The notes under the pieces were generated by a model, which was not told the origin of the DNA, did not search any database, and worked only from the letters and a program-made list of their open reading frames with translations. Shown piece after piece: positions 15,335 through 63,479 of a stretch of DNA of 64,000 bases. The translations under genes and the position numbers were made by a program. Source of the stretch: a virus (Duplodnaviria > Caudoviricetes); the IMG/VR virus record IMGVR_UViG_3300035130_000336, positions 1 to 64,000 of that record; one strand, written 5' to 3'. Numbering within the stretch: position 1 is the stretch's first letter; each line of letters opens with the position of its first letter.

Positions 15335-15471
15335 TAATATAAAGGTTGCCATGCCTTATGCCGTCCTTAACGTATACGAACGTGGTAGAAGTTGAGCAAC
15401 CGTGGTATCGGTTCAACGGTCAATTGGCATGGCAATTATTTTATGATAAATAATATGAAGTTGGAAATAAA

Positions 15472-17731: not shown

Positions 17732-17741
17732 AGGATATAAA

Positions 17742-18002
17742 ATGTCGTTACGAAAGGCAACAAAAATAAGAACATTATGCGAAGTTCTTCGTGAAATAAA
17801 CGATCTTCATCAGGGAGAAACAAAACATGACAGAAAAGTTCGTAAAAGGCTTGTTGAAATTGAGCGTATGGCGAAAAAAATGTCTTATAAACTTTTGGAC
17901 TACAATAAGGAATATGATAAAGAATGGTGGGAAACTGTTGAAGGTAAAGAACGTGAAAAACGTTTAAGAAAGCGGTTGTCAAAATCATATTTAATTGGAT
18001 AG
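17742..18002 (+). CDS. hypothetical basic protein
   Basis: AAGGA RBS before MSLRKATK. Confidence 0.6.
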   Translation: MSLRKATKIRTLCEVLREINDLHQGETKHDRKVRKRLVEIERMAKKMSYKLLDYNKEYDKEWWETVEGKEREKRLRKRLSKSYLIG

Positions 18003-18005
18003 CAT

Positions 18006-18842
18006 ATGCAAATAAATAAAATGGGAATAGATATTGTTCATGGGTGCCAACTTCGATGTATTGGTTGTCCGAATTCAACATTGAAACCAAGGATAATTTA
18101 TTGCGATACTGATATTTTAGATGCATGTTTGCATAATCTTGATGTAAAAAAGATACGTAAATTAAGACTGTATAATTACGGAGAACCACTATTGCATCCG
18201 CATCTTGATAAAATACTCTTAATTATTTCACGACAATCATTTAAAATAAACAATGTGGAGATAACGACAAATGCACAATATTGGAATGAAGAGGTTTTTA
18301 CAAAGGCTTTTAGCCTTGGAGTAGTAACGCAATTATATGTATCTTGTGATGGGAATGCCACTTCTGATGATTATGAACGTTTGCGTCCTCCCGCTAAATG
18401 GGATAAGTTGATTGCTTTTATGAAAAACATGAGACGGCTTCGTGATACGGTTTGTCCTGATATGTTTCTTGGTACACGAACGATATGTACCGATAAAAAA
18501 GATCGGGATAGATGGAAAAAGTTATTAAAACAATTAGGTTATAAACCTGAATTTAGACCATGGGGTACAAGAGCCGATGCGCTAGAAAAACCATGGGGAA
18601 AAGTAAGAATACCAAGAGGAATATGTCGTTATCTCACAAAGGCCAAAGGTTTACGGTTATATGTCGATTATGACGGTACGGTTGTTCCTTGTTGCGTTCA
18701 TCCTCGTGCCGGAGTATTGGGAAATCTTGTCAAAAGCAAATACAGCGATATATTGAAATCTGATTTAAGAAATGAATTCATAAAAGTTATAAAAAAAAAT
18801 AGGGCGTTAATACCTGCCTGTATAGAGTGTCAGGAGAAATAA
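18006..18842 (+). CDS. radical SAM protein with SPASM/twitch domain
   Basis: CQLRCIGC (CxxxCxxC), GEPLLHP, TTN; C-terminal C...DGTVVPCC...GN...CIEC. Confidence 0.9.
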   Translation: MQINKMGIDIVHGCQLRCIGCPNSTLKPRIIYCDTDILDACLHNLDVKKIRKLRLYNYGEPLLHPHLDKILLIISRQSFKINNVEITTNAQYWNEEVFTKAFSLGVVTQLYVSCDGNATSDDYERLRPPAKWDKLIAFMKNMRRLRDTVCPDMFLGTRTICTDKKDRDRWKKLLKQLGYKPEFRPWGTRADALEKPWGKVRIPRGICRYLTKAKGLRLYVDYDGTVVPCCVHPRAGVLGNLVKSKYSDILKSDLRNEFIKVIKKNRALIPACIECQEK

Positions 18843-18843
18843 T

Positions 18844-19752
18844 ATGCTTGTGGCCGGAGTACAGACAGGACAAATGAGGGGAGCCTCTGCAAGGATAAGA
18901 TACTACACGTTTATGAAATATCTTAAATGTGACAAAACTGATAATTTGGAAGAAGCTGATGTTGTTTATTTTCAAAAAAAATCTTCCAAAGATATTATTA
19001 AATTAGCGTGGGAATTAAAACATAAAGGGAAAAAAATAGTTTACGATTGTGATGATGGGGATGGGAAAAGGGACAGAAAAAATAGAAACGATTCTGCAAT
19101 GTTTGAAGTTGCTGATGTTATTACAACCGATACTGAAGAAAGGGCGAAAGAATTTAGAAAAAAAACCGACACAATAGTTTGTGTAGTTCCGGATTGTATT
19201 GATTATAATATAGATAGAAATGAACATAAAATAATACATCCGGAAATTATAACAATAGGAACATTTGGAACACACAAAGTTCTTGAATCAACATTTAATA
19301 AAATCAAACTACTACCTAAATTTAAAAATCAATATTACATTACTGATAGAAAAATATCAAGCTATAACAAACATGGATGGAAATTGATATTGTGGAATGT
19401 TGATACGTTTATAAAAAATATAAAGAAGTTTGATTTATGCGTATTGCTGCATTCTGAAAACAAACTTGGAGAACTTAAATCAAATAACAGGTTACTTGTA
19501 TGTATGGCCCTTGGATTACCCACAATAGTTTCAAATACATGTGCATATGCGGAAACTATGTTTTTTGCCGGTCTTGATCACTGTATTATATCAGGAAAAG
19601 CAAAAAAAACAATTTCAATGTTGTTAAAATATAAAACAAGGATAATCTGTTCCGATAAAATGCATAATTATGTTTGGAGCGTTTATTCTCCGGAAAGATC
19701 TGCTGAACGATTGGAGTTTATATTTAGGAGATTATATGATTCAAGTCTTTAA
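18844..19752 (+). CDS. GT-B glycosyltransferase-like protein
   Basis: ASARIR, VYDCDD and KSNNRLLVCMALGLPTIVS motifs. Confidence 0.75.
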   Translation: MLVAGVQTGQMRGASARIRYYTFMKYLKCDKTDNLEEADVVYFQKKSSKDIIKLAWELKHKGKKIVYDCDDGDGKRDRKNRNDSAMFEVADVITTDTEERAKEFRKKTDTIVCVVPDCIDYNIDRNEHKIIHPEIITIGTFGTHKVLESTFNKIKLLPKFKNQYYITDRKISSYNKHGWKLILWNVDTFIKNIKKFDLCVLLHSENKLGELKSNNRLLVCMALGLPTIVSNTCAYAETMFFAGLDHCIISGKAKKTISMLLKYKTRIICSDKMHNYVWSVYSPERSAERLEFIFRRLYDSSL

Positions 19753-20854
19753 GCCATTGTTAAGAGTAGAAGAAATAATGCCTGAAATAGAAAAGGCGTT
19801 AAAAAGTGGATGGATAGGATTAGGACCGAAAGTATCTGAATTTGAAGAGAGAATCGTTCAATTTATATCAGGGAGAACAAATCCGGATTTGTATTGTTGT
19901 GCATTGAATAGTTGCACTTCCGCGCTTCATTTGGCGGTTAAATTTCTCAATCTTCCTGAGAAATCAATGATTATAACGACTCCGATAACTTTTGTTTCTA
20001 CTAATCATGCAATATTATATGAGAATCATATTCCTGTTTTTTGTGATGTTGAACCAAAGACGGGAAATATAAATGTTGACAGTATTTCAAAAGCAATAAA
20101 AGAATATAAAATAAGTGCGATTATGGTTGTTCATATTGGCGGTTATCCGTGTGAAATGGAAAAAATAAATGAAATAGCGAAAAATGCGGATATACCGATT
20201 ATAGAAGATTGCGCTCATGCATTCGGATCTTGTTATGATCCATGGACGTATGTAGGTAATTCAAATAATATATGTTGTTTTTCTTTTCATGCTGTAAAGA
20301 ATCTTCCTGTCGGAGATGGAGGAGCGATAGTATCAAAAAATAAAGAATTAATAAATTGGTGCAAAAAACAGCGTTGGCTTGGGATAGATAAAGATACGAT
20401 AAGCAGAAGCAAAGATGGCTATTCTTGGGAATATGAAGTTGAAAATATGGGATATAAATATCATATGTCGGATATTGCAGCTATTATAGGAATAGAACAG
20501 CTGAAATTGCTTGATGAAGATAATGTATGGAGGAGTTATATCGTATCATTATATAATTTTTACATGTCTGAATTTATTGGCAGACCGGCATATTGTCGTA
20601 ACAAGCAAAGCAGTTATCATTTTTACCCGATGTTTTTTAAAAACAGAGATGAAGTATATAAAAGATACGTTGAAAACGGTGTTTATTGCGGTATGCATTA
20701 TAAAATGAATACTAATTATAAACCGTATAAAAATTTTCCTAAAATGGATTTGTCCGGCGCAAAAGAGTATGAAAGTACGGAATTGACATTACCTTTGCAT
20801 TTGGGGCTTACTGAAAAAGATGTAAAATTTATTGCCGATATAATGATTTTATGA
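19736..20854 (+). CDS. DegT/DnrJ/EryC1/StrS PLP-dependent sugar aminotransferase
   Basis: NSCTSALHL, IIEDCAHAFG, FSFHAVKNL and GDGG motifs. Confidence 0.95.
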   Translation: MIQVFKPLLRVEEIMPEIEKALKSGWIGLGPKVSEFEERIVQFISGRTNPDLYCCALNSCTSALHLAVKFLNLPEKSMIITTPITFVSTNHAILYENHIPVFCDVEPKTGNINVDSISKAIKEYKISAIMVVHIGGYPCEMEKINEIAKNADIPIIEDCAHAFGSCYDPWTYVGNSNNICCFSFHAVKNLPVGDGGAIVSKNKELINWCKKQRWLGIDKDTISRSKDGYSWEYEVENMGYKYHMSDIAAIIGIEQLKLLDEDNVWRSYIVSLYNFYMSEFIGRPAYCRNKQSSYHFYPMFFKNRDEVYKRYVENGVYCGMHYKMNTNYKPYKNFPKMDLSGAKEYESTELTLPLHLGLTEKDVKFIADIMIL

Positions 20855-21780
20855 AACTTGCCATACGATACGAAAAAAATTCAACCGGCAAAAGCAAATT
20901 CATACAACGGCTTATTCCGGCATTGCAAAGACTTGGAATAGAGATCGTGAAAACACGACCTGATATTACTCTCGGGTTGCAATACTGGAAAGATAAACCT
21001 CATGGTAAAGCTATTATACGGGTTGATGGTATTCATATTGAAAAAGATGAAAAATATAGTTGGCGTAGGCATCTGATTAAAGACGCCATTAAGAAATCCG
21101 ATGGCGTAATATTTCAGTCAAAATTCGCTTATGATATATTGACGCAAATATTGAATGTACACGGTAAAAAGGAATTTATTATATATAATGGCGCTTCACC
21201 GGATGATTATAAAGTTAAACCCATAAAATCACCGTATGAAAAGAATATTATTATATCCGGACGTTATGCTACGGATAAGGTAAGACCGCATAAACGTATA
21301 AAAGAAATGGTTGAAATAGCGAAAAGTTATGTCAAAAAACATGATAATGTCCGTTTCTGGTTTCTTGGAAAGACAATGGGAGAACATTCAGAAAATTTAC
21401 AAATAAAATATACCGGTGATTTGGATGAGAAAAAAATAAAACGGTATCTTGTAATGGCTGATGTTATGTTGAGTATAGGTTATTGGGATTGGTGTCCGAA
21501 CAGCGTGGTTGAAGCTCTTGTCGCGGGATGTCCGGTAATATGCGGCAATCATGGAGGAGTACCGGAAATAGTTAAAGATTGCGGGATGATATTGTCGATA
21601 GATTCGGTGCCGTTAAAACCGAAATTGCAGAAAAATAAACCTCCAGAAATAAGAACCGATCTTGTGATAGAAGCATTGGATTTAATTTTTAATTCACCAA
21701 TGAAACCGGTTAACGCGGAACATCTTTATATAGATCGCATAGCGCAACAATATAAAACCGCTTTTGAGGATATTCTGTAA
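20851..21780 (+). CDS. GT4 glycosyltransferase (paralog of 15472-16431)
   Basis: TGKSKF, IIYNGA and DWCPNSVVEALVAGCPVIC motifs. Confidence 0.85.
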   Translation: MKLAIRYEKNSTGKSKFIQRLIPALQRLGIEIVKTRPDITLGLQYWKDKPHGKAIIRVDGIHIEKDEKYSWRRHLIKDAIKKSDGVIFQSKFAYDILTQILNVHGKKEFIIYNGASPDDYKVKPIKSPYEKNIIISGRYATDKVRPHKRIKEMVEIAKSYVKKHDNVRFWFLGKTMGEHSENLQIKYTGDLDEKKIKRYLVMADVMLSIGYWDWCPNSVVEALVAGCPVICGNHGGVPEIVKDCGMILSIDSVPLKPKLQKNKPPEIRTDLVIEALDLIFNSPMKPVNAEHLYIDRIAQQYKTAFEDIL

Positions 21781-39750: not shown

Positions 39751-40944
39751 ATGCCTATTATTCTTAATGATTGGACTCGGAAACTTGCCGCTGCTCCTTG
39801 GTCTGAACGCAGGTTAATGCGTGCCGTTTCAGTCGGTGATTATATTTATATGACCGGTGGGAATACGAATGCAGCAGGAGTGAGAGTTGCTGAAGTATGG
39901 AGAACTAGAGATGGAATATCATGGGAACTTCTTACCGATACTCCCGGATGGTCGGCGAGAGCGGCGCACGGATTCGTTTATTATAATGGACTTTTTTGGG
40001 TTTTCGGCGGTTCCGAACAAGCGGCATTTTTAAACGATGTATGGTCTTCTCCTGATTGTATAACGTGGACGGAAAGAACGGCTGCCGCCGCATGGAGTGT
40101 ACGTCATGAATTCGCATACTGTTTACATAAGGGAGAAATCTATTTATCCGGTGGTTATGGCGGAGGATATAGACAAAATATATATAAAACATCGGATATG
40201 ATCAATTGGGCACTTGTTGCGAATTTACCACAAGCGGTTCGTGAACATGTAATGCTTTCATTCGGAGGTAATTTATACTGTTATTATGGAGATAACGGCG
40301 CTTCATCAAATGTGGTGCATCGATCAATAGATAATGGAGTTAATTGGGTAAATCTTGGAAATGCAGCTTATGGAGTCAGAAGAGAACATTGCGGCTTGAT
40401 AGATGGGGAGGGTGATAATTTAGCTATCGTCGGCGGTTATAATACAGCAACCAGTACATCATATCATGATGTATGGGAAACGGATGACGGATTTAATTTT
40501 ACTGAAATTGCACAGATAAACGCATATACCGAAAGAAGTGATTTTTGTTTTGTTCATCACAATAAAAGGCTTTATATATTCGGTGGGACGCCGGATACCG
40601 GAGCGACATATTTAAATGACGTTTGGGAATCACCCGCCGAACCGTATGCGGAATTTAGTGGTTATCCTTTAAGTGGTATATATCCGTTAACCGTTAATTT
40701 TACTAATAAATCGTCGGGTTCGCCGACATCGTATCTCTGGGATTTCGGTGACGGAAAGACTTCTACCGAAGAGAATCCGACGCACCGGTATGATGCGCCG
40801 GGAGTTTATACGGTTACATTGAGTTCAACCTATTCTTATGGTTTGTATACCGAAACAAAAAAGGATTACATCACCGTAACGCTTGACTTTACTGGAACGC
40901 CTCGAAGCGGCGTCCGTCCTTTTGAAGTGACATTCAAATTATGA
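39751..40944 (+). CDS. Kelch-repeat beta-propeller plus PKD domain virion protein
   Basis: Six W..R...GG......DVW-type repeats; PKD motif SYLWDFGDG...PGVYTVTL. Confidence 0.85.
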   Translation: MPIILNDWTRKLAAAPWSERRLMRAVSVGDYIYMTGGNTNAAGVRVAEVWRTRDGISWELLTDTPGWSARAAHGFVYYNGLFWVFGGSEQAAFLNDVWSSPDCITWTERTAAAAWSVRHEFAYCLHKGEIYLSGGYGGGYRQNIYKTSDMINWALVANLPQAVREHVMLSFGGNLYCYYGDNGASSNVVHRSIDNGVNWVNLGNAAYGVRREHCGLIDGEGDNLAIVGGYNTATSTSYHDVWETDDGFNFTEIAQINAYTERSDFCFVHHNKRLYIFGGTPDTGATYLNDVWESPAEPYAEFSGYPLSGIYPLTVNFTNKSSGSPTSYLWDFGDGKTSTEENPTHRYDAPGVYTVTLSSTYSYGLYTETKKDYITVTLDFTGTPRSGVRPFEVTFKL

Positions 40945-49471: not shown

Positions 49472-50881
49472 ATGCCTTACGATCCATATCAATTTTCAGT
49501 GGCAAGAGCGAATGTTATCGGCGGTATGACTTCCGGTATTGAAAAAGCCGTAGTGGATACCGCTTCGAGAATAGCCGAGATATCGAAACAAAAAGGTATC
49601 AATGATAAAATAAGAGGTCTTTACAAAGAGACGGTAAACAGATTTGTAACGGAAATGAAGGAAGCCGATCCTTCCATATCGGATGAGAAAGCCAGAATTA
49701 CCGCTATGAGAAAATTGCCTTCTCCCATGGAAGGTATTTCGAGCGAGGATAATTTAAAAAATCTGTTGGCTGCTTCTTTATCGGCGGATAAATATATTGA
49801 GGAGTTGCAGAAAAAAACAAAAGCCACGCAATTTACGAAAGCTGCTGAACAGCCTGTTTCCGAAACAAGACAGATACAAGCTGAAGGACCGCCTATACAA
49901 CAAGGCGAACGTACCGGTGAAGTTCCCATGGAACAGCAAACAATTCAGCGTCCGATGAGATATGAAGAGTATGAAAAAGGATATGAAACATTGGAACCGG
50001 AAACGCGAAAAATGATTCCCGAATCGGTTGGAGCGCGGGTAAAAACCACTGAATCTGTTTATCAACAACCGTTAAAAACATTCGAGACTGAAAGAGAAGC
50101 ATCGGTAAAAGAGCGGGAAAATAATATAAAAACGATGTCGGGGATCGATAAGGGTGCCGGATTTCATACGGCGATAATTGAAAGTCAGAAAGCGGTGGAT
50201 AAATTAAAATCCAAAAAATCGACGCTTGAAGATTTGATAAAAACCGTCAGCAAATCCGAAGGTTTATCCATGAAACAGATCGAACAGGGAAAACAAAAAG
50301 ATCTGGAAATGGAAATCGATCAGATTTCTCAAGAACTTAATATCCCGCAACAGCTCGCGCATAATGATGAATTTTTAGGACGTATGAAAGAGGATATCGA
50401 TCGTCTTGTTGCGAAAGAAGAGGATTGGCAGAAAGGTTGGGAAACCGCTTATGATGAAATGAAAAAGCGGGAAGAAATGAATGCACGGAGAAAAGGAGCG
50501 CCGACACCGACTCCCGATTGGAAATTAGGTAAAGAGTTGCAGAATGCTTTAGAAAAAATGGCGAAACAGCAATTTCCCAATCTTTTTAAAGTTATCGAAG
50601 GCGAATATGGTATTGATGTTCTTAAGCAAACAAGCGGTATTGCTGAAGCGGCGAGAGCAATTTTAAGAGATCCGCAAAAAAGAATAGCTCTGGCTTATGC
50701 TTTTCCGGAAGAAGTGGGAGCGATAGCGCGGGCGAAAGGTGCGCCGCGTCCATCTGATGCTGAAATTCAATCGGTATTAAATGAGATGCAGCAATTACAA
50801 AATCAAGTATATGGAGTTATCGAAAAAACGCCTTCATCGCAAAGTGAGGATATTTTTAGCGGATTGGGCGGATTGCAGTGA
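49472..50881 (+). CDS. internal virion protein (putative)
   Basis: 469 aa helical ORF in the ejection cluster. Confidence 0.55.
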
Positions 50882-53800
50882 AGCAATATACGGTTGATGA
50901 ATTTGCGGAAGAACTTAAAAATAAATATCCGCAATACAAAAATCTTGATAATAATATATTGGTGGAAAAGGCATTATCAAAAAAACCTGAACTTGAACAA
51001 TATATTATAAAGGAAGAAACCACTCCCGTTTCTTCTCCAACCAAATATACCGTCAAAGAATTCGCCGCCAAATTAAAGGAACTTCATCCGGAATACGCTT
51101 CAATTGATGATAAGGAATTGGTTGATAAAGCCATAGAAAAAAAACCCGATATTAAAAATTATATTGAGACGCCTTCTCTTCTTGAACGGGGGAAAGAATT
51201 TGTTGGGAAAGGCGTGGAAGCGATTAAAGGTTTTGCGGAAAAAATTATTTTTCCATCAGAACCCGGCAATATTGATTTATCAAATAGACCGATTGTAAAA
51301 AATGCCGATGGTTCAATAAGTACCGTTCGTTCTATAAGTTTTAATGAGAATGGAAAAGAAATTCTTATTCCGACTATATCTAATGATGGAAAAATATTGA
51401 CTGATCAGGAGGCAATTGAACAATATCATAAAACAGGTAAACATCTTGGAAAATTTAATTCGATTGAAGAAGCTAACAAATATGCTGAAAAGTTGCATCA
51501 ATCACAAGAGCAACGTTATTCAGAATCGAAAAAACCAATTGGCGCAACGCGATCTTTTGAACCTTCTGAAACAATTGAAAAACCGGAACAAAAACCGGAA
51601 CCGGGACAAATTCCCATTCCTCAATTAAGCGCTGAACCGCAAATAAAGGCTATCGAATCAAGATTTTATAGTATTCAAGATTCCCGTGCAAAAGCGCTTG
51701 AATTGAAATCTTTGCCGTTGGATACAAGTATTAATCTGATTAACAAATTGCCTGATGATCAAAAAACTGCGGTAAATGGAGAGCTTGAAAAATTATTAAA
51801 AGAAGATAAAGAAGCGAATGCTTTTGCTATGGGGATATTGCAATCAACTTTGGCACCGACTTTTTTTCCGAAAGAAACCAAAAGGGAAATAGAAAAAACA
51901 CAACAGGCCGCTCCGATACGATTCGGTGTAGGGCAATTCGCTGGAACGGCAAGTCAGGCTTTGATTGGCGCGGGCGCATTGAGTAAGCTTCTTGGAAAAA
52001 CAATCATTTCAAAATCTCCTTTATTGACTAATGCCATTACGAGATTAACTACCGCCGGTGCGATCGCCGCTGAACAAAATATAGGAAGGAAAGAAATCGG
52101 TGAGGCTATAGGAGATGTCGCGCAACAGAGCGGGGGAGGATTGGTATCGATAATTCCCGAAATTGTCGTTCCTGCCGGACCTTTACAATTAATAGCACAA
52201 CCTCTTGGTGATTTGGTATATGATATCGTTTCCGGAAAAATAAGGGGACAGGATGTCGGTTCAAAAAGATGGTGGAAAAATGAAATAATTACTCTTGCCT
52301 CATCCGCTGGATTCGCTATAAGGGATGTTGCTTCAGGGAAGACATTTGAAGTACAGCAACAAGCACAACGGAATGAATTAAAAAAGCTTCTCAATTCCGG
52401 AAAAACGAAAGAGTGGGAACTTACCCCTGAAGCAAGTCGGCGTATTGATGAGAATGTTAGTAAATGGATTAAAGAAACAGAATCACCACCAAAATCTAAA
52501 GTAATAACTGATGAAGAATCAGAATTTATAGCAGCAAATAAAGGTGTAATGGCAGGTAGAATAAATGTTAAAAAACCACCGACGGAAATAGAACTTAAAG
52601 CCGTAGATGAAGAAGCACGAATAAGGGAGGAAATAGAACGGCTTACGGAATCGAAACCCGTTGAAAAGACGATTCGATTCAGATCGGATGAAATGAAAAA
52701 TGCCGATAATGAAATGAATAAAAGATTGCAGGATGTATCCGAATTCGAACGAGCGGAGGCGCAGAAAGGTTTTTTACAGCTTCCCGGAGAAAAAAAAGTT
52801 ATTGAAGGAGGAGAAAAAAAGGTTGCGGAAACATTGGAAGCGGGAAGATATGAATCGTTAAATCCCATTGAAAAAATAAAAAAATCAATTAATGCCACGA
52901 TCGGATCGATTAAAAAAAGCTTTACCAAATATGAAAGTGATGTTGAAAGCTATCCTCAATACAGGGATGATCGGCGTACTGAATTCGATACAATGAGAAG
53001 AGGATTGTTTGAAACGGTTGCTAAATATCGTTATGCATCTCTGTCAAAATTGTTTAAAAGTGAAGGAAAGCGGGGAGTCAGAAAAGCAACGGATATTCTT
53101 TTATTGAGAAATTTGAAATTGCGGGGATTAAAAGGTCAGACGCTTGAGAATGATTTAAGTGTTGAACAGGTGCAAAACCATTTGGATTGGGTTGAAAAAA
53201 ATTCAAGTAAAGAAGTTCTCGATGCCGTGGAAGATATGAGAACGGTTTTACAGGGTATTGGTAAAGAACTTGTAGCGCGTGGTAAATTGCCGGAAGCGGC
53301 TCTTGAAGTAGATTATTTTCCTCATAAGGTTCTTGATTATACTCCTGAATTTATGCTTGGTTTGAAAACGCCGATGAATAGAAAATTCGGCGAACCATAT
53401 CGACCGTATACAAAAAAAGCGGTCGGATCGAAACGATTGATATCATCTGACGACAGCGTTGTATGGACCCATATCGCAAAGGTTTTAGCTGATAACGCAC
53501 AAGAGGATTGGTTTACAAAGCAGGCATTGAAGTATGATGCCACGAGTCGTGTTACGCCGGAAGAACGTCAAAAGTTTTATAAAGGGTATGAAACGGTAAT
53601 AAATGGCAAACGATACAAGGTGATGGAATGGAAGAAAACGAGATACCGGGCGCGTGCAATCAGTGAAGGTTTACTGGAAAAAGCGCAACAGGAAGATATG
53701 CTCGTTAAGGATTGGCTGGAAACGAAAGGGCCTTTTGGAGGAAAACCGGTAAGAGAAATTACGGCGATGGGTAAACCTCAATTGTATTTATTACCGAAGG

Positions 53801-55521
53801 AAATAGCCGTTGATCTTGATAATCTCATTGAAAAAAGTCCGCCTTTTATGGATGCGATTTATAATATCGGACATTTAACTCAGAAATGGAAAGGTTTCAC
53901 ATTAGCGACGGCTGCATTACCGTATCAGATGGGTAATATAATGGGTGACGGGATATCAACATTGGTTTTTGATCCTCATGCATATACTTATTTACCGCAA
54001 TCCAGCCGTGTGGCGATGAGAATATTTTATCCTCAAGGCATCGGTAAAAATATTACTCTGAATAGTTTTGAACAGAGATTATACGATGTTGCTTTGCAAA
54101 AAGACGTTGCTCGAAGTGGAATGACATCCGAACTCAGATATGGGATTTTAAAAAGTTTGTCCGAAAAATATAAAACGGCATCGGAATATCGGGAATCCTT
54201 GATGCGGCTTTCCATATTGGCACATCAGTTGGACAGGGTAGATAAAGGTGAAGCGGTACAAAATCTGGCTGGATTGAATTTAGAAGGATTGGATAATGAA
54301 TCAGCGGCTGGGAAAGTCGCGAGAGAAGTATTGGTTGATTATTTGGCCGTACCAAGATCATATCAATTGTTTCTCAGCCGGGGATTGATGCCTTTTGTAC
54401 GTTTTCATGAAGGGAATTTTCGCAATTATGCACGGGCGATCACGAGAAATGAAGGAACGCATAAAGCATTAAAAACCGCAACGCCGATCCTTGCCGCTTA
54501 TGCGGCGCAATGGGCGTATAATAATTTGTCTGAAAATAAAAAAGACATGGAAATGCAATTGCCCGATTATCTTCGCGAACGGTGGCATCTGAATTTATTT
54601 AAAAACAAGGATGGCAATGTAGTCGTTTGGGCACCGCAACAACCGGTTGACATGGCGATGAGTTGGCTTGGTTTGGATAAAATGAATAAAATCGCTTCAG
54701 ATATGAAAGCTGGAAGAATTACTCCGAAACAGGCTGCCGGAGAATTTTGGGATGCCATACGCGGCGGGGCATCCGAAAATATCGGTTCTTTAATGAATCC
54801 GCTGATTCAAGCGTGGCAAGGGTTGCAATCAAACGAAGATCCATTTACTCATCGTAAAATAATGCCGGATGCGGTACATAGGGAAGGGATATTCAGCAAA
54901 TATGGAAAACGATATACTATTGGTTATTTAGGGGAAAAACTCATTACGCCGATCGCTCAATATACCCGTACCAAAAAAGGCGGCGATCCGACGAAAAATC
55001 CGTTATTGGATTGGTTAACGGAAGGACCGTTTAATATAAAAAGAGCTTTCGGTATTTATGAAGTAAATCCATTGACTCAAAAATTATCGGAACATTTCGA
55101 AGTTGCGGGACCGATAGAGGCGGCGAATGAATATTATCGAACGAAGTTTTATGATATTCTGGATGAATACGGAGATAATGTAAGTGAGGGTTTGAAAGCC
55201 CGGAAAAATAATGTGGCATTAACCGATAAACAACAAAGGGCGATTAATGATGTTGAAGCGTTGGTGAAGACCGCCAAAGAAAACGGTTTCGAAGGGTTGC
55301 AATTGAATACATGGTTCAAAAACAATACCGCGCAGAGAAAAATAATTGATTCCGAATTGCGGAATACGACCGATGAAAACAAAAGAAAAGAGTTGATCAA
55401 CAGAAAAAAGGAATTGTTAACTGGTAGTCAGGTTGAGTATATGAAAAAGGTGCCTAAAACGGGACAGAGAAAATACGTAACTGAAATGCAGCGGCGTAGT
55501 GCCATGCCGGGGAATGAATAA
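50878..55521 (+). CDS. large internal virion / polyvalent ejection protein
   Basis: 1547 aa; two N-terminal FA..LK..(Y/H)P.Y repeats; [23 protein letters not shown] domain; helical C-terminus. Confidence 0.7.
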
Positions 55522-55786: not shown

Positions 55787-55892
55787 AATATTGGGGGGAT
55801 GATGGATAAACCCGGCTGGATACTCGCGGCGATAGGAACGGTTTTCGTAATGTGGATGTTACTGTATCTGATTTACTATTGCAAGTGATAGC

Positions 55893-56273
55893 ATGAAAAT
55901 TCGAAATCTTTCGGAATTGAATAAATATCCTATTCCGGAACATATAAAGCAACAGATCGTTGATGCATACCGAAAAAAAAAGAATGGAGATAATACTCCC
56001 CATTCCGTTACCGACATGGAACCGGCTTCTCGAAATGAATCCGTTTCAGCGTATTCGGGTGAGACATTTGATTCACCTGTTCATATCGATATTTATTCTA
56101 CCCGAAAGCAAAAGACCGACATTGATAACATATCGGGGAAAGCCGCAATCGACGGAATCGTTAATTGCGGAATACTTGAAACTGATTCGCCCGACCAAAT
56201 CGAAAGCTATCAGGTCCATAAGCCGGAAATATCGCCGGTAGAACAGACGGTGATAGTGATTGAGGAGGTATGA
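55893..56273 (+). CDS. RusA-like Holliday junction resolvase
   Basis: DIDNISGKAAIDGIVNCGILETDS matches the RusA D.DN..K...D......DD motif. Confidence 0.75.
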   Translation: MKIRNLSELNKYPIPEHIKQQIVDAYRKKKNGDNTPHSVTDMEPASRNESVSAYSGETFDSPVHIDIYSTRKQKTDIDNISGKAAIDGIVNCGILETDSPDQIESYQVHKPEISPVEQTVIVIEEV

Positions 56274-56276
56274 TGC

Positions 56277-57315
56277 GCCTTTGCTTCGCACGACCAAACG
56301 ATACTTAGCTTTGCTTTTGCTGGGCTAAACACAACAATGCCCCACATTGCCTTTGCAAAACAATGCATTGCATTACTTCACTTTGCCTTTGCAACACAAT
56401 ACGCAACACTACCATGCTCTGCCTATGCTCTACTTTACATAACATGACCGCACTTTGCCTTTGCATTACATTACATTACCACGCCTTTACATTACCATAC
56501 TCAACACCACCATGCTCCGCCTATGCTTCACACGCCGCTACTTCGCTTCGCTTTGCCTTTGCATTACTTCACTACACTATACGGTGCTTTTGCATTACTC
56601 CACTACACCTGACTCCGCATTGCCTTTGCAACACTATACATTGAATAGCCTTTCCAATGCATCGCAATACTTAACTATGCTGATCCTTTGCTAGCACAGC
56701 TTCACCATACACTACTTTTGCTTTGTCGTACTGAACGGAACTTTGCCCAACCATTGCAACACATGGCTATACTGCACAATACAATACCTTCGCATGGCGA
56801 TACGAAACAAGGCTTCACACTTCCTTTGCGTCGCTAAACCACGCAAAACTATGCCTTTGCCGTATTGAACGGAACTTCGCTTTGCCTTTGCGGCGTAAAA
56901 CTACGCTTCACTCAGCTTCTGCTTTACGCAACGAAACAGCACTATGCTTTACCTTTGCCATACAGCACATCACTTCGCTTTTGCTTGGCCACTCCTAACT
57001 ATTCTGTGCCTGTGCCACACGATACAACGCCTCGCCAAGCCTGTGCTTTGCTCCACCGTATCCGGCCCTGCTTTACCAAACCATTACAACACAGTGCAGT
57101 ACAAGGCTATGCCTGTGCTTAACTATACTAGACTTTGCCTGTGCCAAACATGACGAGACTTTGCCTGTGCTTAACTTTACTTTGCTTAACGGCACCATAC
57201 CACGCCTGTGCTCTACTAAACATCACTGTACTTTGCCTGTGCCATACACCACCCTGCAATACATGGTATTAGCGATGTTTGACCGCACCGGGCATTCCTA
57301 TACTTTGGATTGCCT
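56277..57315 (-). repeat. pentamer-periodic array 1 (plus NNNRC / minus GYNNN, punctuated by CTTTGC/CTGTGC hexamers)
   Basis: e.g. ctttgc aaaac aatgc attgc attac ttcac tttgc ctttgc; abuts the stop codon of the RAMP gene; strand inferred from co-oriented genes. Confidence 0.9.
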
Positions 57316-57951
57316 TTAGCTTTTTAAATAATTGACGGTAAAGCGGCCTTTTCCACTGTTTCGCCACTGTCCGATGCCGCGCAATTGGCCATAATCAAGC
57401 CATTCGCGTACGAACTTTTCATGGCTGTCACTTAAACACTGAATTTCCAATTCGCAGGTGCTTCCTGCGGGGACGGTTTCACTGTTCGCCAAAGCAATTC
57501 TCTCGCCCTGTGCGGTATTTCCGCGAAGAGGACGTTGACAGTTTCCCATCTTGCCTTTTACTTTGATGGCAATCATTCTCGGGTGAACGAAAATACATCC
57601 ATCGATCACCTTTTTATACGCTCTTAATTCTCCCTTCTTTCCTTTACCCGATTCGGATTTTGACGCCTTATACGTTTCGAATCCCTCACAGCGCATGAGA
57701 GCGGCGCAGGTATCCTTGAAAAACCCCTTCCACTGGTAATCCCAAAAGATGGGATTACTATCCTTATCGCGTGGAAAAATAGTCATTGCTTTTTCAACAA
57801 CTTCTTCTATCCCGATCGCTTCCACTTCTTCTTCCCGCGACAGCTTATCGGGAGCCTTGCTTGCTATATACTCCGCATGGATTTCTTTTGACGGACTTGC
57901 TGTTCCCAACACTTCTTCTTGGAAAGTGATTTTTACTTTGAGCGTTTTCAT
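57316..57951 (-). CDS. stand-alone Cas7/RAMP-superfamily RNA-binding protein
   Basis: N-terminal beta strand LKVKITFQEEVLG, QWKGFFKD helix, SETVPAGS strand, C-terminal Gly-rich loop GIGQWRNSGKGRF; AAAGG RBS. Confidence 0.8.
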   Translation of the reverse strand: MKTLKVKITFQEEVLGTASPSKEIHAEYIASKAPDKLSREEEVEAIGIEEVVEKAMTIFPRDKDSNPIFWDYQWKGFFKDTCAALMRCEGFETYKASKSESGKGKKGELRAYKKVIDGCIFVHPRMIAIKVKGKMGNCQRPLRGNTAQGERIALANSETVPAGSTCELEIQCLSDSHEKFVREWLDYGQLRGIGQWRNSGKGRFTVNYLKS

Positions 57952-57982
57952 ACTGAACCTTTCTGATAAAATTGAGGGTTGA

Positions 57983-58101
57983 TTTACCTTTGCATAACTT
58001 CACAACACATTGTTTTGCCTTTGCGTTGCCAAACTATTCCTTGCTCAACTCTGCCGTTGCAAAACACCACATTGCAATACAGCACTTTACAATTGCGATA
58101 C
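57983..58101 (-). repeat. pentamer-periodic array 2a
   Basis: ctttgc ataac ttcac aacac attgt tttgc ctttgc gttgc caaac...; directly upstream of the RAMP gene. Confidence 0.85.
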
Positions 58102-58264
58102 ATCTCCTTTCTGTTTGAACCATTTGGTTTTTTCTTTATAATATTTTCTACTCTCCTCTCTTGTTTTATTTTTTGTTTCTCTATACATTTTGTCACGGGT
58201 TTTTCTTATGAATCTCATTACTTTGAAATTTTTCATAATTGATATTTTTTTTGAGATAATAAAA

Positions 58265-59790
58265 GAAACCGTGCTGTTCCATACGATACGTTACATCGAC
58301 CTGCTTTTGCAACACTTAACTACGCAAATCCATACAAAGCTTTTGCGGGGCTAGACTAGACATCACAGTACCCCTGCCTCGCTGCGCGTTACATTACTAT
58401 GCATTACCCCTGCCCCGCTGCGCGTCACATTGCTATGCTTTACCTTTGTTTTGCTGGGCAATACGTTACCGTGCGTTGCCATGCCTGTACGGAACTTTAC
58501 TTAACTCTACTTAGCCTTTGCTCCACAAAACATAACTTCACTTTGCCATTCCTGTGCTACACAAGACACAACCTTACTCTACCATGCCTTTCCTTTGCTT
58601 GGTTATACTGTACCATGCCATACCTGCGCAATACCCCACAATACCGAACTGTACAATGCTACGCCTTAACAATGCCAAACAGCGCTTTGGCATGCATTGC
58701 CGGTGCTGTGCCAAACTACTCAACGCTTTACCATCGCCATGCCAAGCTTTGCCGTTCCTTTGCCGCACTAAACGCCGCGATACCATGCCTGTGCATAACC
58801 ATGCATAACTGTGCTCTGCCTGTGCATTACTGAACAACATACCGCTTTGCCTTACCTTTGCAGAACAATGCTTCGCTATGTATTGCCTGTGCTCCACAAT
58901 GCATCACAATACTTCACATTGCTTCGCCTTTGCCATACAGCGACATGCGATACTCCGCCTTTCCTTTGCAAAACACAGCGTCACAACGCATAGCCTATGC
59001 TTCACGAAACAGCACGTCACAAAACTATGCCTTTGCGTCACTAAACTACACAGTGCCTGTGCTTTACTAAACATCACTTTGCTTTTGCATAACAGCACAT
59101 CACTACGCCTGTGCTTCACCTTACTTCACTCTACATTGCCTGTGCCGCGCAATACATAGCGAAACCAGACCATGCCTGTGCATAACGTTACCAAACTCTG
59201 CTGTGCCTGTGCATTACCTTACCTCACTTCGCTTTACCATGCCAGCGCACCACGGTACAGCACTATGCCTGTGCATCACGCTACCAAACAATACATTGTC
59301 ATGCATGTGCATCACATTACTTCACTTCCCACCGCCTGTGCCTTACTAAACTCCACTCTACAGTGCCTGTGCATCACTTGACTTCGCTCTACCTCGCTTT
59401 GCCTGTGCATTACATCACCACACAGTGCTTTGCCGGTGCTTCACGTTACAACACTATACACTACATATCCTAACCATTTCTTTGCCAAACAGTGCATCAC
59501 CATACAATGCCGGTGCCATACATTGCTATACCATGCATCGCCTGTGCTTTGCTTCACTCCACCTCGCTTTGCCTGTGCTTGGCTTAACCACGCTCTGTCT
59601 GTGCATTGCATCACGGCACACAACGGGACAGCACTACGCCTGTGCATCACTAAACTATACTGTGCCTGTGCTTGGCTTAACTAATCTGTGCCTGTGCATC
59701 ACTTCGCCGCACATAGTTCTGCTGGTGCTTTGTATTACTATACTATGCATCGCCTGTGCATGACAGTACATCACATTGCTTTGCCTCTGT
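58265..59790 (-). repeat. pentamer-periodic array 2b
   Basis: ~1.5 kb of NNNRC pentamers with a CTGTGC/CTTTGC-type hexamer every 4-7 pentamers. Confidence 0.9.
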
Positions 59791-59841
59791 ATTGATTCTC
59801 TGTTTTTGATACCCTCCCGAATTGATTTTTTGGTTCTCAGA

Positions 59842-60086
59842 GGCTACAAAAAGACTACAATTGGCCCTGATGATAGTATATTTAAGGATAAAATTACTCA
59901 TGATGGAAAGCAGGTTTTTAAAAAAAGTGCCCAAATTCGTTAAAAAAACGGAGGGGAGAGGATTTGAACCTCCGGTAGAGTTGCCCCTACGCAGGTTTAG
60001 CAACTCTACGGCGGAGTAGGTTTCACCCAATAAAACCAATGGTTCTATGCCGTCTTTCGCAGCGAAAAGGCTACCTGAGGGCTACA
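59842..60086. other. attP region: tRNA-derived core flanked by integrase arm-type repeats
   Basis: GGCTACA/GACTACA at 59842 and 59853, GGCTACC/GGCTACA at 60069 and 60080 (11 bp pitch), on both sides of the tRNA fragment. Confidence 0.7.
59949..60003 (-). tRNA. 3' half of tRNA-Ser(GCT); att core fragment, not a complete tRNA
   Basis: Minus strand TTGCTAA-ACCTG-long variable arm-GGAGGTTCAAATCCTCT-CCCCTCC-G; similarity stops at the anticodon loop; no D arm or 5' acceptor strand. Confidence 0.85.
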
Positions 60087-61097
60087 TAATACGTCATTTA
60101 TGATATCAATCTGACGCCGGTTGTCGTAAACATGCTGCGTTTTCGGACTCGTTTGAATGCCCATTTTCTTTAACATCTCATAGGTGAATCCCTGCCGCAA
60201 CAGATACGTCTCCGCGCAATGCTTTAAATCGTGCCAGTTGAAATCATAAATCCCCACCTGTTTTAAAACTGTATCGAAATGCCATCGGGGATCGCTGATT
60301 TTTTTCCAGACGACCTTTCCGTTTTTCCGTTCCAACATGGGAAAGAGCCACGGACAATCCTTCGGCAACGAATGGGCGTACCGGACAAAATCCATGTCGA
60401 TATTCGGCAGGATCGTTACCCGGATTTTATCTTTCGTTTTCTTCGCCTGAAAACGAACGACCCATCGTGATACTTCCATCTGAAGATTTTTTCGCTGTAA
60501 ATTGAAAAGATCCCCCTTGCGGATGGGATTAATAAGGGAGAATTTTACCGCTTCGAGAATGTGGGATTTATGTAAGGTCAAATAATTGATCAGGGCGTTT
60601 TTTTCGCCGTCGGAGAGAATCCGATTGCGCTCGTTGCCTTTCCTGATCCTCCATTTTCTGACCGTGGTTCGACCGCACCGCCCGGTTTCATAAGCGAAAT
60701 TGCAGATTGACCGGACGACGATTTTATAATTATTGACGGTATTGACCGCAAGGCCGCTCCCTTCGAGATTTCCGACATACCGGCTGTAACCGGCGGCGAA
60801 AATCTGCTTGTCGGGAAACAGACGACCCAATTCCTTAATCGATCGGTCGTAACACGCCTGATTAAATCCCCCGCGTCCGCGCTCGTTCAAATAAAGTTCC
60901 GCGCATTTGGAAAATCGTAACGATGTCAAAGAACAATCTCCCGTCAATGAACGGGCTTCGATCTGATTTTTTAAATGCTGATCGAAATTATCCGTCTTGC
61001 GGCGGAAGTGACGCGCCTTTCCCGCGCCGTTTCGGTATGCCCGGTCAACGTAATACCACCGAACCCCATTTGCATCATTCTTATACCAGACTCGCAT
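60045..61097 (-). CDS. int: tyrosine recombinase / phage integrase
   Basis: TVNNY core-binding region, NPIRKGDL, KTK, WHDLKH and C-terminal Y; GGAGGAG RBS before MRVWYK; adjacent to the att core. Confidence 0.88.
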   Translation of the reverse strand: MRVWYKNDANGVRWYYVDRAYRNGAGKARHFRRKTDNFDQHLKNQIEARSLTGDCSLTSLRFSKCAELYLNERGRGGFNQACYDRSIKELGRLFPDKQIFAAGYSRYVGNLEGSGLAVNTVNNYKIVVRSICNFAYETGRCGRTTVRKWRIRKGNERNRILSDGEKNALINYLTLHKSHILEAVKFSLINPIRKGDLFNLQRKNLQMEVSRWVVRFQAKKTKDKIRVTILPNIDMDFVRYAHSLPKDCPWLFPMLERKNGKVVWKKISDPRWHFDTVLKQVGIYDFNWHDLKHCAETYLLRQGFTYEMLKKMGIQTSPKTQHVYDNRRQIDIINDVLCSPQVAFSLRKTA

Positions 61098-61168
61098 ATC
61101 TCCTCCCTTTTCAGGGAGGGTATCTGAGTATAATATAGTATCAGGTAGGGGAAAAGAGGGTATATTTT

Positions 61169-61441
61169 CTACGCTTTTACGCATACCGCATTATAGATGA
61201 TTTTATTGGCGTATTCCGGACAGAATTCAGGCGTTTTCGACATATCGTATCGATTGCCCTGTTCGTATTTCACGCAAGTGTTTTTGAGGGGACACTCTTC
61301 ACAGGTCGGAATATCTTTTTTCCACCGGTCGGCGTATTCCCGGCAGCCGCCGAGCATACATCGCGGACTCCACTTATGCGGGACGGCGGAGGGACACCCT
61401 TCACACTCTTTTACGGCTTTGCCGCAAATATAGAGGCTCAT
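61169..61441 (-). CDS. Cys-rich hypothetical protein
   Basis: 90 aa with several CxxC motifs; ATGA overlap. Confidence 0.6.
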   Translation of the reverse strand: MSLYICGKAVKECEGCPSAVPHKWSPRCMLGGCREYADRWKKDIPTCEECPLKNTCVKYEQGNRYDMSKTPEFCPEYANKIIYNAVCVKA

Positions 61442-61641
61442 TTTTTTCTTCCTCTCTCCGGCAATAAAAACTCTCCGCCGGTCAGTCGTTTTTCAATATC
61501 GGCACGCCTGAACCGATAAATTCCCCCGATTTTTACCATACCGGGCAGACGTCGTAACGCCATGTATTTTTCGATGAACTTTTTACTGACGTTCAACCTC
61601 TCGCTCAGCTCGTCGGGAGTCATCAGCGAATCTTTCGTCAT
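61438..61641 (-). CDS. excisionase-like HTH_17 protein
   Basis: LMTPDELSERLNVS...LPGMVKIGGIYRFRRADI; AAGGAG RBS. Confidence 0.85.
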   Translation of the reverse strand: MTKDSLMTPDELSERLNVSKKFIEKYMALRRLPGMVKIGGIYRFRRADIEKRLTGGEFLLPERGRKK

Positions 61642-61649
61642 ACGCGCTC

Positions 61650-62154
61650 CTTGCCTTTGCATCACTGAACATTACTTTGCATTGCCATGCCTGTGCTTGA
61701 CTACGCCTTACTTCGCCTGTGCTATACTAAACTTCACATCGCATCGCCTGTGCTACACCAAACAACACTGCGCACTGCCTGTGCCTAACTCAACAATGCC
61801 AAACCGTGCCTGTGCTTAACAAAACAACACCATGCTAATCCTGTGCTTCACATAACTGAACAGCACTATGCATTGCCTGTGCCGCGCAATACACCACCTC
61901 GCTTTGCCTGTGCTGGGCCAAACATTACCCTGCCTTGCCTGTGCATAACGAAACTCCACCGCGCATTACCTGTGCATTACCTTACCAAACCTTACATCAC
62001 CATGCCTGTGCAAAACTTGACATTGCTTCACGATGCCTGTGCTTAACAAAACATGTCATAACAATGCATTGCCTATGCTTAACCAAACCGTGCTGTACCT
62101 GTGCTTGACAATACATCACCCCACGGTGCCTATGCATTACCTTACCAAACACCG
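61650..62154 (-). repeat. pentamer-periodic array 3
   Basis: Same grammar (ctgtgc ttgac tacgc cttac ttcgc ctgtgc...); fills the gap between the SSB-like gene stop and the xis RBS. Confidence 0.9.
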
Positions 62155-62583
62155 TTAAAACGGCAGATCGGAATCCGCTGGGGGAGCGTTGTTCTGGTCC
62201 GCCAGATGTTTCGCTTCACGGCACACGTAATCATCGATTTTGTTCTTGTCGGGATAGATGCCGTTTTTATCCACTTCGATACCGATTTTTGCTTTACCGA
62301 CACGACCTTCGAAATCGAAGGCTCTGAGGCTTCCCGTTTCGTATTTCGCCAGCAGCCCGAAAGCATCGCATGCATGGCGGAGTTTCGCGGGCATCTCATC
62401 AAGCAGATAGTCATAGATTCTGTTGACGACGCGATCCCCCAACCAGACGGCAATAGTAAGCCGGATCATCTCCTTGTCGTTTTTACTTACCTGATCGATC
62501 GCTTCGATCACTTCGACGTCGTAAACGCCTTTATCGATGATTTTTCTCGGTAGATCTTTTTCCGAATAGGTTTTGAACCTCAT
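62155..62583 (-). CDS. DUF669-like single-stranded DNA-binding protein
   Basis: GVYDVEVIEA...SKNDKEM, YPDKNKIDDY, C-terminal DSDLPF tip; follows the Sak4-like gene. Confidence 0.75.
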   Translation of the reverse strand: MRFKTYSEKDLPRKIIDKGVYDVEVIEAIDQVSKNDKEMIRLTIAVWLGDRVVNRIYDYLLDEMPAKLRHACDAFGLLAKYETGSLRAFDFEGRVGKAKIGIEVDKNGIYPDKNKIDDYVCREAKHLADQNNAPPADSDLPF

Positions 62584-63479
62584 TTCTTTTTTCCGCCTTT
62601 CAATTTGCCGTTTAACCATTCTATTGTTTTCGCCGCCTGATCGGCGGTAAGTTCGTTCCAGTTGTCCGCTCCCGCCTTGGTCAATACTTTCGTCGTTTCC
62701 TCAGGGGTGATTTTAAGGAGCGCCACCATCCGTTCGATTTCCTCGACATCTTCATCCGACGCGATCGTGATAGGGTTTACATTCGATTCAATATTCTCCC
62801 TGCCGTACCGTTTCGAAAACTCCTCGTAATCGAGGGAAAAGGTTTCCTGATCGGGAAAACCCGCGAGGCGCGTTTTATAAACGATCGCCGTCGGCGGATA
62901 GACGGTGCCGCGTTTGATCACCCGCAATCCCAGATCAAGCTCGTAAACGAGTTTGTCCCATACGTCGGGACACTTTCCTGTCTCTTCCCGCTGCCCGGTT
63001 CGGGGATTGGTACCCCATTCCGACGTCTCATGCGCGATGAACCAGATGTTCATATCAAGTTTCATACACCAATTGACAAGTCGGCGCATTTGCGCGATCG
63101 CCGGTTTTTTCGACGCGCCAAAGACATCACGTTCGGCGAGACGCTCCGCCTCGTTGGCGATGCATGTCTGGTAGACTTTCGTGATTGAATCGATCACCAG
63201 CGTACCGTAATTATGTTTTTCGGTGGCAAGCGACTGCATCTCGGTAACGATCGCCGAAAGGTCAAGCGCCCCTTCTTCCGGTCCCATGTACGCGCCTCCC
63301 GCCGCTTTGAGGCGTTTCTGGTATTCCACTCCATCCGCTCCCCCTTCGGTATCGATATAATACGGCCTTGGGAACGTGAGAGAAAACCATGTTTTTCCCA
63401 CTCCACTCGCTCCGAAAAGAAGCCCTTTCGCCTTACCCTGTTTTACTTCTTCAGGATCTTTCGCTTTCAATTTGCTCAT
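62580..63479 (-). CDS. AAA_24 / Sak4-like recombination ATPase
   Basis: GASGVGKT, YIDTEGG, LVIDSIT and FIAHE motifs; GGAGG RBS before MSKLK. Confidence 0.85.
   Translation of the reverse strand: MSKLKAKDPEEVKQGKAKGLLFGASGVGKTWFSLTFPRPYYIDTEGGADGVEYQKRLKAAGGAYMGPEEGALDLSAIVTEMQSLATEKHNYGTLVIDSITKVYQTCIANEAERLAERDVFGASKKPAIAQMRRLVNWCMKLDMNIWFIAHETSEWGTNPRTGQREETGKCPDVWDKLVYELDLGLRVIKRGTVYPPTAIVYKTRLAGFPDQETFSLDYEEFSKRYGRENIESNVNPITIASDEDVEEIERMVALLKITPEETTKVLTKAGADNWNELTADQAAKTIEWLNGKLKGGKKK

Follow-up and report, generated by a model that had tools for sequence, protein, structure and literature searches.

A probable VIPR system with short, tail-less guides and unusually large pentamer arrays in a temperate tailed phage

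VIPR (Viral Interference Programmable Repeat) was described in a bioRxiv preprint (10.64898/2026.04.26.720920) and a structural companion (10.64898/2026.04.26.720927). As these two sources report it, the Vipr RAMP protein oligomerises along a vrRNA made up of GGY/NN pentamers, with one protomer per repeat; it flips out the GGY and presents the NN, and the resulting complex binds double-stranded DNA (dsDNA) with every third target base skipped and represses transcription. The natural targets given there are competing phages and satellites. The type II system of Escherichia phage SUSP1 comprises Vipr, vap1, and four vrRNAs (10.64898/2026.04.26.720920, 10.64898/2026.04.26.720927), and SUSP1 Vipr reads the first G of GGY by H17/D177 and the second by R138/W178 (10.64898/2026.04.26.720927). 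The Methods of 10.64898/2026.04.26.720920 also list variants with alternative YNNNG/NNNNG repeats, and the legend of its fig. S18 refers to staggered arrays in which vrRNAs overlap by 1 nt. Non-canonical VIPR-like 5-nt arrays, such as WGT/NN and TGH/NN, have in addition been reported with a genomic language model (10.64898/2026.10.21.760802).

Here we analyze a 64,000-nt stretch of DNA, positions 1 to 64,000 of the IMG/VR record IMGVR_UViG_3300035130_000336 (Caudoviricetes) and referred to below as the window, in which a gene for a RAMP protein of 211 amino acids (aa) lies among four tracts of 5-nt repeats. We conclude that this phage very probably carries a VIPR system, in which a single Vipr RAMP gene is accompanied by several minus-strand arrays coding for numerous short vrRNAs. 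Direct support comes from the anatomy of the repeats, the RAMP fold of the protein, its remote homology to the SUSP1 clade, and the family-wide linkage of gene and array on the same strand. An earlier, sequence-only reading of this DNA had proposed a candidate non-CRISPR RNA-guided system and had pointed to a likeness with VIPR-type systems with GGY/NN repeat RNAs. The likeness is upheld by the two preprints, and the proposal stands as well, although the system is no longer a new one.

The tracts (Table 1) show a marked 5-nt periodicity. Base-identity autocorrelation at a lag of 5 nt was 0.44–0.46 in all four, compared to 0.26 in shuffles, and further peaks were found at lags of 26, 31, 36, and 41 nt (0.38–0.58); those at 5, 26, 31, and 36 nt had been anticipated by the sequence-only reading. 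For tract 1 the lag-5 identity was 0.456 (z 14.2), and in none of the four tracts was the observed value reached by any of 1000 mononucleotide shuffles. In a coding control of 4.6 kb (50878–55521) identity was flat at 0.25–0.29 over lags 2–20, with 0.34 at lag 1. A sliding scan of the window detected only the four tracts and an isolated 150-nt window at 40751–40900. The plus strand of the tracts is rich in C (29–33% C, 12–16% G), which makes the minus strand the informative one; the neighbouring genes lie on it as well.

Table 1. Coordinates of the vipr gene and the array tracts within the window
Feature	Position	Strand	Description
Array tract 1	56277..57315	-	directly 3' of the vipr gene; 30 in-register x-G-Y-N-N runs with +1-nt junctions
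vipr gene	57316..57951	-	211 aa; Cas7/Csm3-like RAMP (predicted) with glycine-rich loop GIGQWRNSGKGRF
Array tract 2	57983..58101	-	three full units, in the vipr 5' leader; 5 runs; z 4.2
Spacer between tracts 2 and 3	58102..58264	.	non-periodic, AT-rich; possible internal promoter region
Array tract 3	58265..59790	-	largest tract; 47 runs; z 15.7; end ~170 nt from the attP/tRNA fragment
Array tract 4	61650..62154	-	16 runs; z 9.6; adjoins the start of the HTH_17 excisionase-like gene

To resolve the units, the minus strand was parsed into pentamers by a Viterbi procedure with a penalty on change of register. The parse gave 98 in-register runs (30+5+47+16 in tracts 1 to 4), and every change of register was of +1 nt except for one of +3 at the edge of tract 3. 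With a complete unit defined by a +1 slip at both ends, the window contains 89 of them and the whole genome 116; 87 of the 89, and 114 of the 116, contain 5–8 pentamers, for lengths of 26, 31, 36, or 41 nt. The sequence-only reading had estimated about 100 units of 26–41 nt. Among the 571 window pentamers, the first position is A (.32), G (.33), T (.28), or, rarely, C (.06), the second is G (.95), the third is a pyrimidine in 95% (C.45, T.50), and positions 4 and 5 are variable. The tiling of the tracts by minus-strand pentamers and the scarcity of C ahead of GY had both been noted from the letters and are confirmed here. The relaxed base is the first G of GGY, and not the GY that had been taken to be relaxed.

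At the junction between units, D-G-C-A-[A/C] is separated by a single additional base (81% A) from G-G-C-A-N, so that units begin with a canonical GGC pentamer and finish with a near-constant GCA[A/C] pentamer. The punctuating hexamer seen by the sequence-only reading is in this sense real, but it is a one-base insertion in context rather than every GCAAAG, some of which are in-register pentamers. Tract 4 is the most regular tract, with units mostly of 31 nt that carry the GCAC-A end. The units are highly diverse, only 8 of 1862 same-length pairs having an identity of 80% or more. In the most similar pairs the differences fall at positions 1, 4, and 5 (31–38%), compared to 4% at position 2 and 13% at position 3, where 24 of the 31 differences are C/T exchanges; the sequence-only reading had noted that the fixed positions are kept while the N positions vary freely. 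The sole clear tandem duplicate consists of two adjacent 36-nt units at 58372–58444, which are 89% identical and give a hint that the arrays grow by duplication of units followed by divergence.

Other searches of the tracts were negative. An Rfam scan matched no family, and the predicted RNA folding of tract 4 was no better than that of shuffles (z +0.84). Over 55800–62700 we found 8 promoter-like sites, compared to 11.6 ± 3.4 in shuffles, with no sigma-70-like site standing out, and 5 terminator-like sites, compared to 6.1 ± 2.3. A look for sequencing runs that contain the stretch turned up none of RNA, and the runs compared with it were all DNA contigs.

The 211-aa protein had been singled out for its RAMP-type loop rich in glycine (G-loop); structural comparisons agree with that assignment. 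An AlphaFold2 model was built from a 32-sequence alignment (mean predicted local distance difference test score, 73). Its top Foldseek matches were type VII Cas7 and Csm3 (E 2e-8 to 1e-6), and in a VIA-align comparison against 48,161 chains, which does not depend on Foldseek, Csm3 (9g9a_D) ranked first, with a Z of 12.4 and a root-mean-square deviation of 3.3 over 152 residues; chains of Cmr4-, gRAMP-, and type IV Cas7-like proteins came next. On the evidence of this model, the protein has a Cas7/Csm3-type RAMP fold. It matched no Pfam, PHROGs, or PADLOC model, and it belongs to a very large, uncharacterised family of at least 7922 clusters at 90% identity (E ≤ 1e-3, among 8000 candidates scored), with 2005 representatives at 50% identity.

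Alignment of a profile of this family (A3, 51 sequences) with a profile of the SUSP1 clade (A2, 35 sequences) by hhalign gave an E of 5.4e-5 over 183 columns from end to end. Register is kept at the N-terminal strand and at the G-loop, with GxGQWR here aligned to GVGDWR in SUSP1, and the profiles point to a remote homology between the 211-aa protein and the SUSP1 Vipr clade. In this alignment Q195 pairs with D177, and W196-R197 with W178-R179. T17 stands where SUSP1 has H17, a correspondence that is positional only, as the printed alignment is offset there by two residues. Of 145 family loci, 143 have a Q ahead of W-R, and all of these have a relaxed first repeat position. The replacement of D177/H17 by Q195/T17 would fit the relaxation of that position, as judged from the two clades. 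Across the 145 loci there was no simple correlation between the G-loop residue and repeat position 3.

The linkage of gene and array was examined in two samples of relatives, one made up of the best 80 of at least 552 IMG/VR stretches and the other of 80 loci from bacterial genome assemblies found with a 32-sequence profile (A1). A periodic tract is present in 79 of the 80 IMG/VR loci and in 77 of the 80 bacterial-genome loci, including all 59 that are 8 kb or longer, so that homologues are accompanied by arrays as the sequence-only reading would have it. The distance from tract to gene is at most 150 nt in 76 of the 80 IMG/VR loci, with the tract downstream in 70 and upstream in 6, and in all 76 the gene-adjacent array shares the strand of the gene. 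Over the two samples together, 153 of the 160 loci have an array of the same type in the flanks retrieved. The commonest change of register in the 76 IMG/VR loci is again +1 (955 of 1322), the most frequent run lengths being 31, 26, and 36 nt. The pentamers of the IMG/VR relatives read x-G-[C/A]-N-N, in contrast to the C/T at position 3 in the present phage. The bacterial-genome loci come mostly from gut Clostridia, but also from Bacteroidales, Coriobacteriia, Chitinivibrionales, Planctomycetota, and others. None of the open reading frames (ORFs) that neighbour vipr in the present phage has a counterpart among the 80 IMG/VR loci, so that gene and array move as a module. In a gut-phage relative (L003), the one relative whose neighbours were scanned, the module lies among antirepressor and cI-like genes.

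The present phage is an outlier within the family by the size of its array. The four tracts amount to 3189 nt. The whole 73,074-bp contig holds two further minus-strand tracts of the same kind outside the window, at ~71225–72075 and ~72160–72445, which add 27 complete units and bring the total to ~4.3 kb, or ~6% of the genome, for a single copy of vipr. The lower of these two tracts ends in an 11-bp hairpin resembling a terminator. Array length in the IMG/VR relatives is 275–775 nt within ±6 kb of the gene; in the bacterial-genome relatives the median is 525 nt and the maximum 1525 nt within ±10 kb. The array of the 73-kb phage is the largest among the 161 loci compared.

Comparison with SUSP1, whose genome encodes a 195-aa Vipr between two GGYNN arrays, brings out both the kinship and the differences. 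In both phages the RAMP is a small, single-domain protein of ~200 aa with the G-loop G-x-G-[D/Q]-W-R...G-R-F; the pentamers, with fixed G/Y and variable NN, lie on the strand of the gene, both upstream and downstream of it; and the system is phage-encoded, without cas genes or a CRISPR array. The first repeat position, which is G in SUSP1, is free here (A/G/T, with C rare), and the G1-reading positions hold Q195/T17 instead of D177/H17. The guide has 5–8 pentamers here and 9–16 in SUSP1. The present units abut with a +1-nt slip and have no invariant 3' tail or pseudoknot, no vap gene is recognisable as judged by shared neighbours, and the complete units number 89 in the window, or 116 over the genome, compared to four vrRNAs in SUSP1. 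With directly abutting units of 5–8 pentamers, the system is not VIPR of type II, in which 9–16 repeats are followed by an invariant pseudoknot 3' tail. The first G, being one of three bases in near-equal use, is not conserved as in the canonical GGY; as 10.64898/2026.04.26.720920 counts YNNNG/NNNNG variants as VIPR, conservation of the first G therefore defines the canonical type and not the class.

Further likenesses are found among the variant arrays. Like the staggered arrays of 10.64898/2026.04.26.720920, the present ones consist of consecutive tail-less units, and their 5n+1 period and shared junction G fit an overlap of 1 nt; in the YNNGG framing of that preprint the present repeat is YNNNG. 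The 160 relatives sampled have at most 1.5 kb of array within ±10 kb, compared to 3.2 kb here. The arrays of 10.64898/2026.10.21.760802 similarly have a fixed trinucleotide with one degenerate position beside a Vipr-like fold, although that source gives repeat motifs for clusters, in passages that describe neither a +1 stagger nor arrays of such size. With Cas7/Csm3/Cmr4 and type VII Cas7, the best structural matches of the model, the predicted protein shares an RRM core, a glycine-rich loop, and a thumb hairpin, at a sequence identity to Class 1 backbone subunits of just 9–17%. Class 1 effectors have a 6-nt step (according to 10.64898/2026.04.26.720920), in contrast to the 5-nt step here. The present locus also lacks a repeat-spacer array, Cas5/Cas6/Cas10/Cas3, and adaptation genes: PADLOC matched no Cas model among 46 proteins, and Tandem Repeats Finder returned no CRISPR-like repeat, merely short fragments with a period of 26–36. 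With neither a repeat-spacer array nor a multi-subunit cas operon, as the sequence-only reading had already remarked, the system is not class 1 CRISPR-Cas.

The divergent features claimed for this copy in that reading, namely relaxation of the repeat, punctuation, and arrays of very large size, are all real, but 10.64898/2026.04.26.720920 seems to cover the relaxation and the punctuation already. Since the class, its mechanism, relaxed repeats, and staggered tail-less arrays are all in the preprints, no new category is opened by this locus. What makes it notable is the largest array among the 161 loci, its very short guides, and that no accessory gene is recognisable. Arrays of such size were not found described in the literature, the supplements of the preprints being outside the comparison.

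By analogy with SUSP1, the arrays would be transcribed together with the surrounding leftward (minus-strand) operon, and one Vipr protomer would bind each pentamer with G2 and Y3 locked and N4-N5 exposed. The extra base at the GCA[A/C]-A-GGCA junction would shift the register by +1 and so limit the filament to just 5–8 pentamers, each 26–41-nt unit representing one staggered, tail-less guide. The guide-protein filament would then bind dsDNA, the NN pairing with two of every three target bases, and would silence rival phages or further mobile elements at the level of transcription.

A bolder version of this scheme, in which this clade would use a distinct mode of VIPR, we consider unlikely. In such a mode the ends of the tail-less mini-guides, each of 5–8 protomers, would be set only by the one-base slip in register, the canonical GGC pentamer after each slip would serve as a fresh site of nucleation, and short guides, more than 100 of them and all different, would act jointly as a library. 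The freely varying first position of the repeat would add to specificity, and in the lysogen the largest array, just downstream of a rebuilt host tRNA gene, could be expressed by read-through from the host promoter.

Several observations weigh against the assignment to VIPR. The hhalign probability for the two family profiles is 66.6%, so that the sequence link to SUSP1 Vipr is remote; it falls to 19% (E 1.2e-3) for profile A1 against the single SUSP1 protein. The 211-aa protein has no sequence match in the PDB at E up to 10, and its thumb region is not convincingly aligned with that of SUSP1 Vipr. The array lacks a conserved 3' tail of the kind found in type II vrRNA. No vap gene was recognised on the basis of neighbours shared with the 80 IMG/VR loci, a basis other than the published vap families. 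The stagger would be the same as the published one going by the legend of fig. S18. Guide specificity would amount to just 10–16 bases, and the searches for targets under the 1-nt-skip rule did no better than shuffled guides. In ~1 Mb, comprising the phage's own genome and the 80 IMG/VR loci, 20 of 114 own guides had a perfect match, compared to 19 and 13 for shuffled guides, and there was no excess over shuffles at any skip length; at a skip of 3 only the arrays themselves were found. These searches had low power, the guides being short and the search space small. For 233 distinct guides of the relatives, perfect matches (6- plus 7-pentamer guides) numbered 14+3 at skip 1 and 13+2 at skip 3, compared to 7+0 at skips 0 and 2 and to 11+1 and 9+0 for shuffles, which makes the excess at skip 1 slight and not significant. 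Finally, an IMG/VR scan with one 8-pentamer guide, written as NNx (x being the first repeat position), yielded at least 117 stretches. Among the matches listed was a six-contig provirus family in which the guide fits the first codons of a 44-codon ORF, behind a long AT-rich intergenic region, at 16/16 NN and 6/7 x positions; the other 113 guides showed no convergence on two complete proviruses of this family.

Two single-guide matches were also recorded. A guide of one gut-phage subclade (7083–7117 in the relative L003; present in 4 loci) matches ten loci of another subclade at 14/14 NN with a 1-nt skip. The site matched (~4596–4615 in locus L002, and nine other loci) lies between divergent ORFs, in an intergenic region with repeated operator-like words; we treat it as a lead only. 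In the present phage, the 7-pentamer guide at 56754–56788 matches the vipr coding sequence at 57557 at 13/14 NN. The same guide matches a conserved site in the vipr coding sequence of ~60 IMG/VR relatives (position 6367), again at 13/14 NN, which one guide could reach by chance. The vipr gene does figure among the target classes given in a later preprint.

Among the alternatives to a VIPR system of the published kind, the one that survives best, very unlikely as we judge it, is that the same pentamer scaffold has a different read-out, such as targeting of RNA or reading of position 1 along with the NN, which would make three bases read out of the five in each pentamer. Position 1 is as variable as positions 4 and 5 and is coupled to the preceding NN (mutual information 0.096, compared to a null of 0.055 ± 0.011), and this protein has other residues where SUSP1 Vipr reads G1. 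We considered position 1 as the wobble base of the target. In-frame stops in N4-N5-x are below expectation in the guides of the present phage (26 compared to 29.8 under index-stratified permutations, not significant) and in 1154 distinct units of the relatives (238 compared to 267.9 ± 11.2). This candidate was supported by simple permutation, weakened under the index-stratified null, and came back in the units of the relatives, but it failed on control triplets, which were likewise depleted (anti-stops, z -1.85; stops in an x+own-NN reading, z -5.0), and we regard it as unsupported. The coupling of position 1 is therefore not codon-specific, and it may reflect differences in composition between loci. 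The provirus match of the 8-pentamer guide, with its 6 of 7 agreements at x, would favour a read position 1, but a match of that quality is expected by chance given the at least 117 stretches, and no further guide converges there. Degenerate scans with two other guides returned 23 and 4 stretches that were mostly ORF-internal and chance-like, and the best NN matches of the relatives' guides agree at x in just 0–2 of 7–8 positions.

It is highly improbable that the arrays of this VIPR-like locus act mainly as decoys, or as competitive vrRNAs that sequester or redirect the Vipr of rival phages. There is a precedent in solo vrRNAs encoded by satellites, which redirect phage VIPR to decoy sites according to 10.64898/2026.10.15.759431, and ~4.3 kb of array for a single vipr is a very high ratio of RNA to protein coding. 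The arrays nevertheless lie beside their cognate vipr and on its strand, as they do in all 76 gene-adjacent arrays of the relatives, and the units are nearly all different, which a pure sponge would not need. The match of guide 56754–56788 to vipr of the present phage and its relatives could be read in favour of decoys, but 13/14 NN falls within the range of shuffled guides. The chance that the tracts are DNA elements (iterons or a structural repeat) or encode plus-strand Cys-rich peptides, with an unrelated RAMP gene among them, is close to negligible: plus-strand ORFs of 40–144 aa do cross the tracts, and a minus-strand ORF (57984–58196, probably a chance open frame in G/T-rich repeats) covers tract 2 with an internal ATG after a Shine-Dalgarno-like AAAGGAG, yet lag-3 identity in the tracts is at background (0.22–0.23, no 3-nt periodicity), the 5n+1 period keeps no reading frame, strand asymmetry and orientation always track the RAMP gene, and gene and array occur jointly in phages of unrelated background that share no other gene.

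The locus lies in the genome of a temperate, tailed phage. PHROGs-based annotation identified a terminase, a portal, a major head protein, an integrase, an excisionase-like helix-turn-helix protein, an annealing protein of Sak4-like type, and two methyltransferases. The contig begins and ends with the same 18 nt, as would a complete genome that is circular or circularly permuted, although its IMG/VR entry has it as linear and 95% complete. The array tracts and the genes between them are all leftward, with the integrase module and attachment site between tracts 3 and 4, and the neighbours of vipr encode the integrase, a 90-aa Cys-rich protein, and an HTH_17 protein. Beside the integrase, 59941–60010 (core 59960–60002) reads as a tRNA 3' end on the minus strand, and ARAGORN found no whole tRNA. 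The core is probably that of attP. A higher-depth 55-nt contig of the likely source run (X1) has just this core in common with the phage, and in another run (X5) a contig that follows the phage from where tract 3 ends turns to unrelated sequence at 59980, which is what integration of a relative would be expected to give. Given the tRNA 3' end at the core, a tRNA gene rebuilt in the lysogen would lie just upstream of tract 3.

Relatives of the phage in contigs from two marsh metagenomes of other studies show point differences in their genes and, in their arrays, skips, returns, and replaced stretches of 17–410 nt. This suggests, if weakly given that the joints were placed at 85% likeness within repeats, that array content turns over between strains. 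Elsewhere in the window, an AT-rich tandem repeat of period 104 (3851–4072; 2.2 copies) with internal inverted repeats lies just upstream of the small terminase gene and may function in packaging or replication. At 12953–21780 the phage has successive genes of glycosyltransferase, GtrB-like, aminotransferase, and radical-SAM-like type, which may serve modification of DNA or of surface sugars.

VIPR is a newly described class of RNA-guided DNA recognition that has been proposed to be older than CRISPR. The present phage would be an extreme natural example of it, with one effector gene, ~116 different short guides, a relaxed first position, and no guide tail. It offers a test case for how guide ends are defined in staggered arrays and for the minimal length of a functional VIPR guide, as well as for whether and how the first repeat position is read (Q195/T17 compared to D177/H17) and for what a phage with a hundred guides is aiming at.

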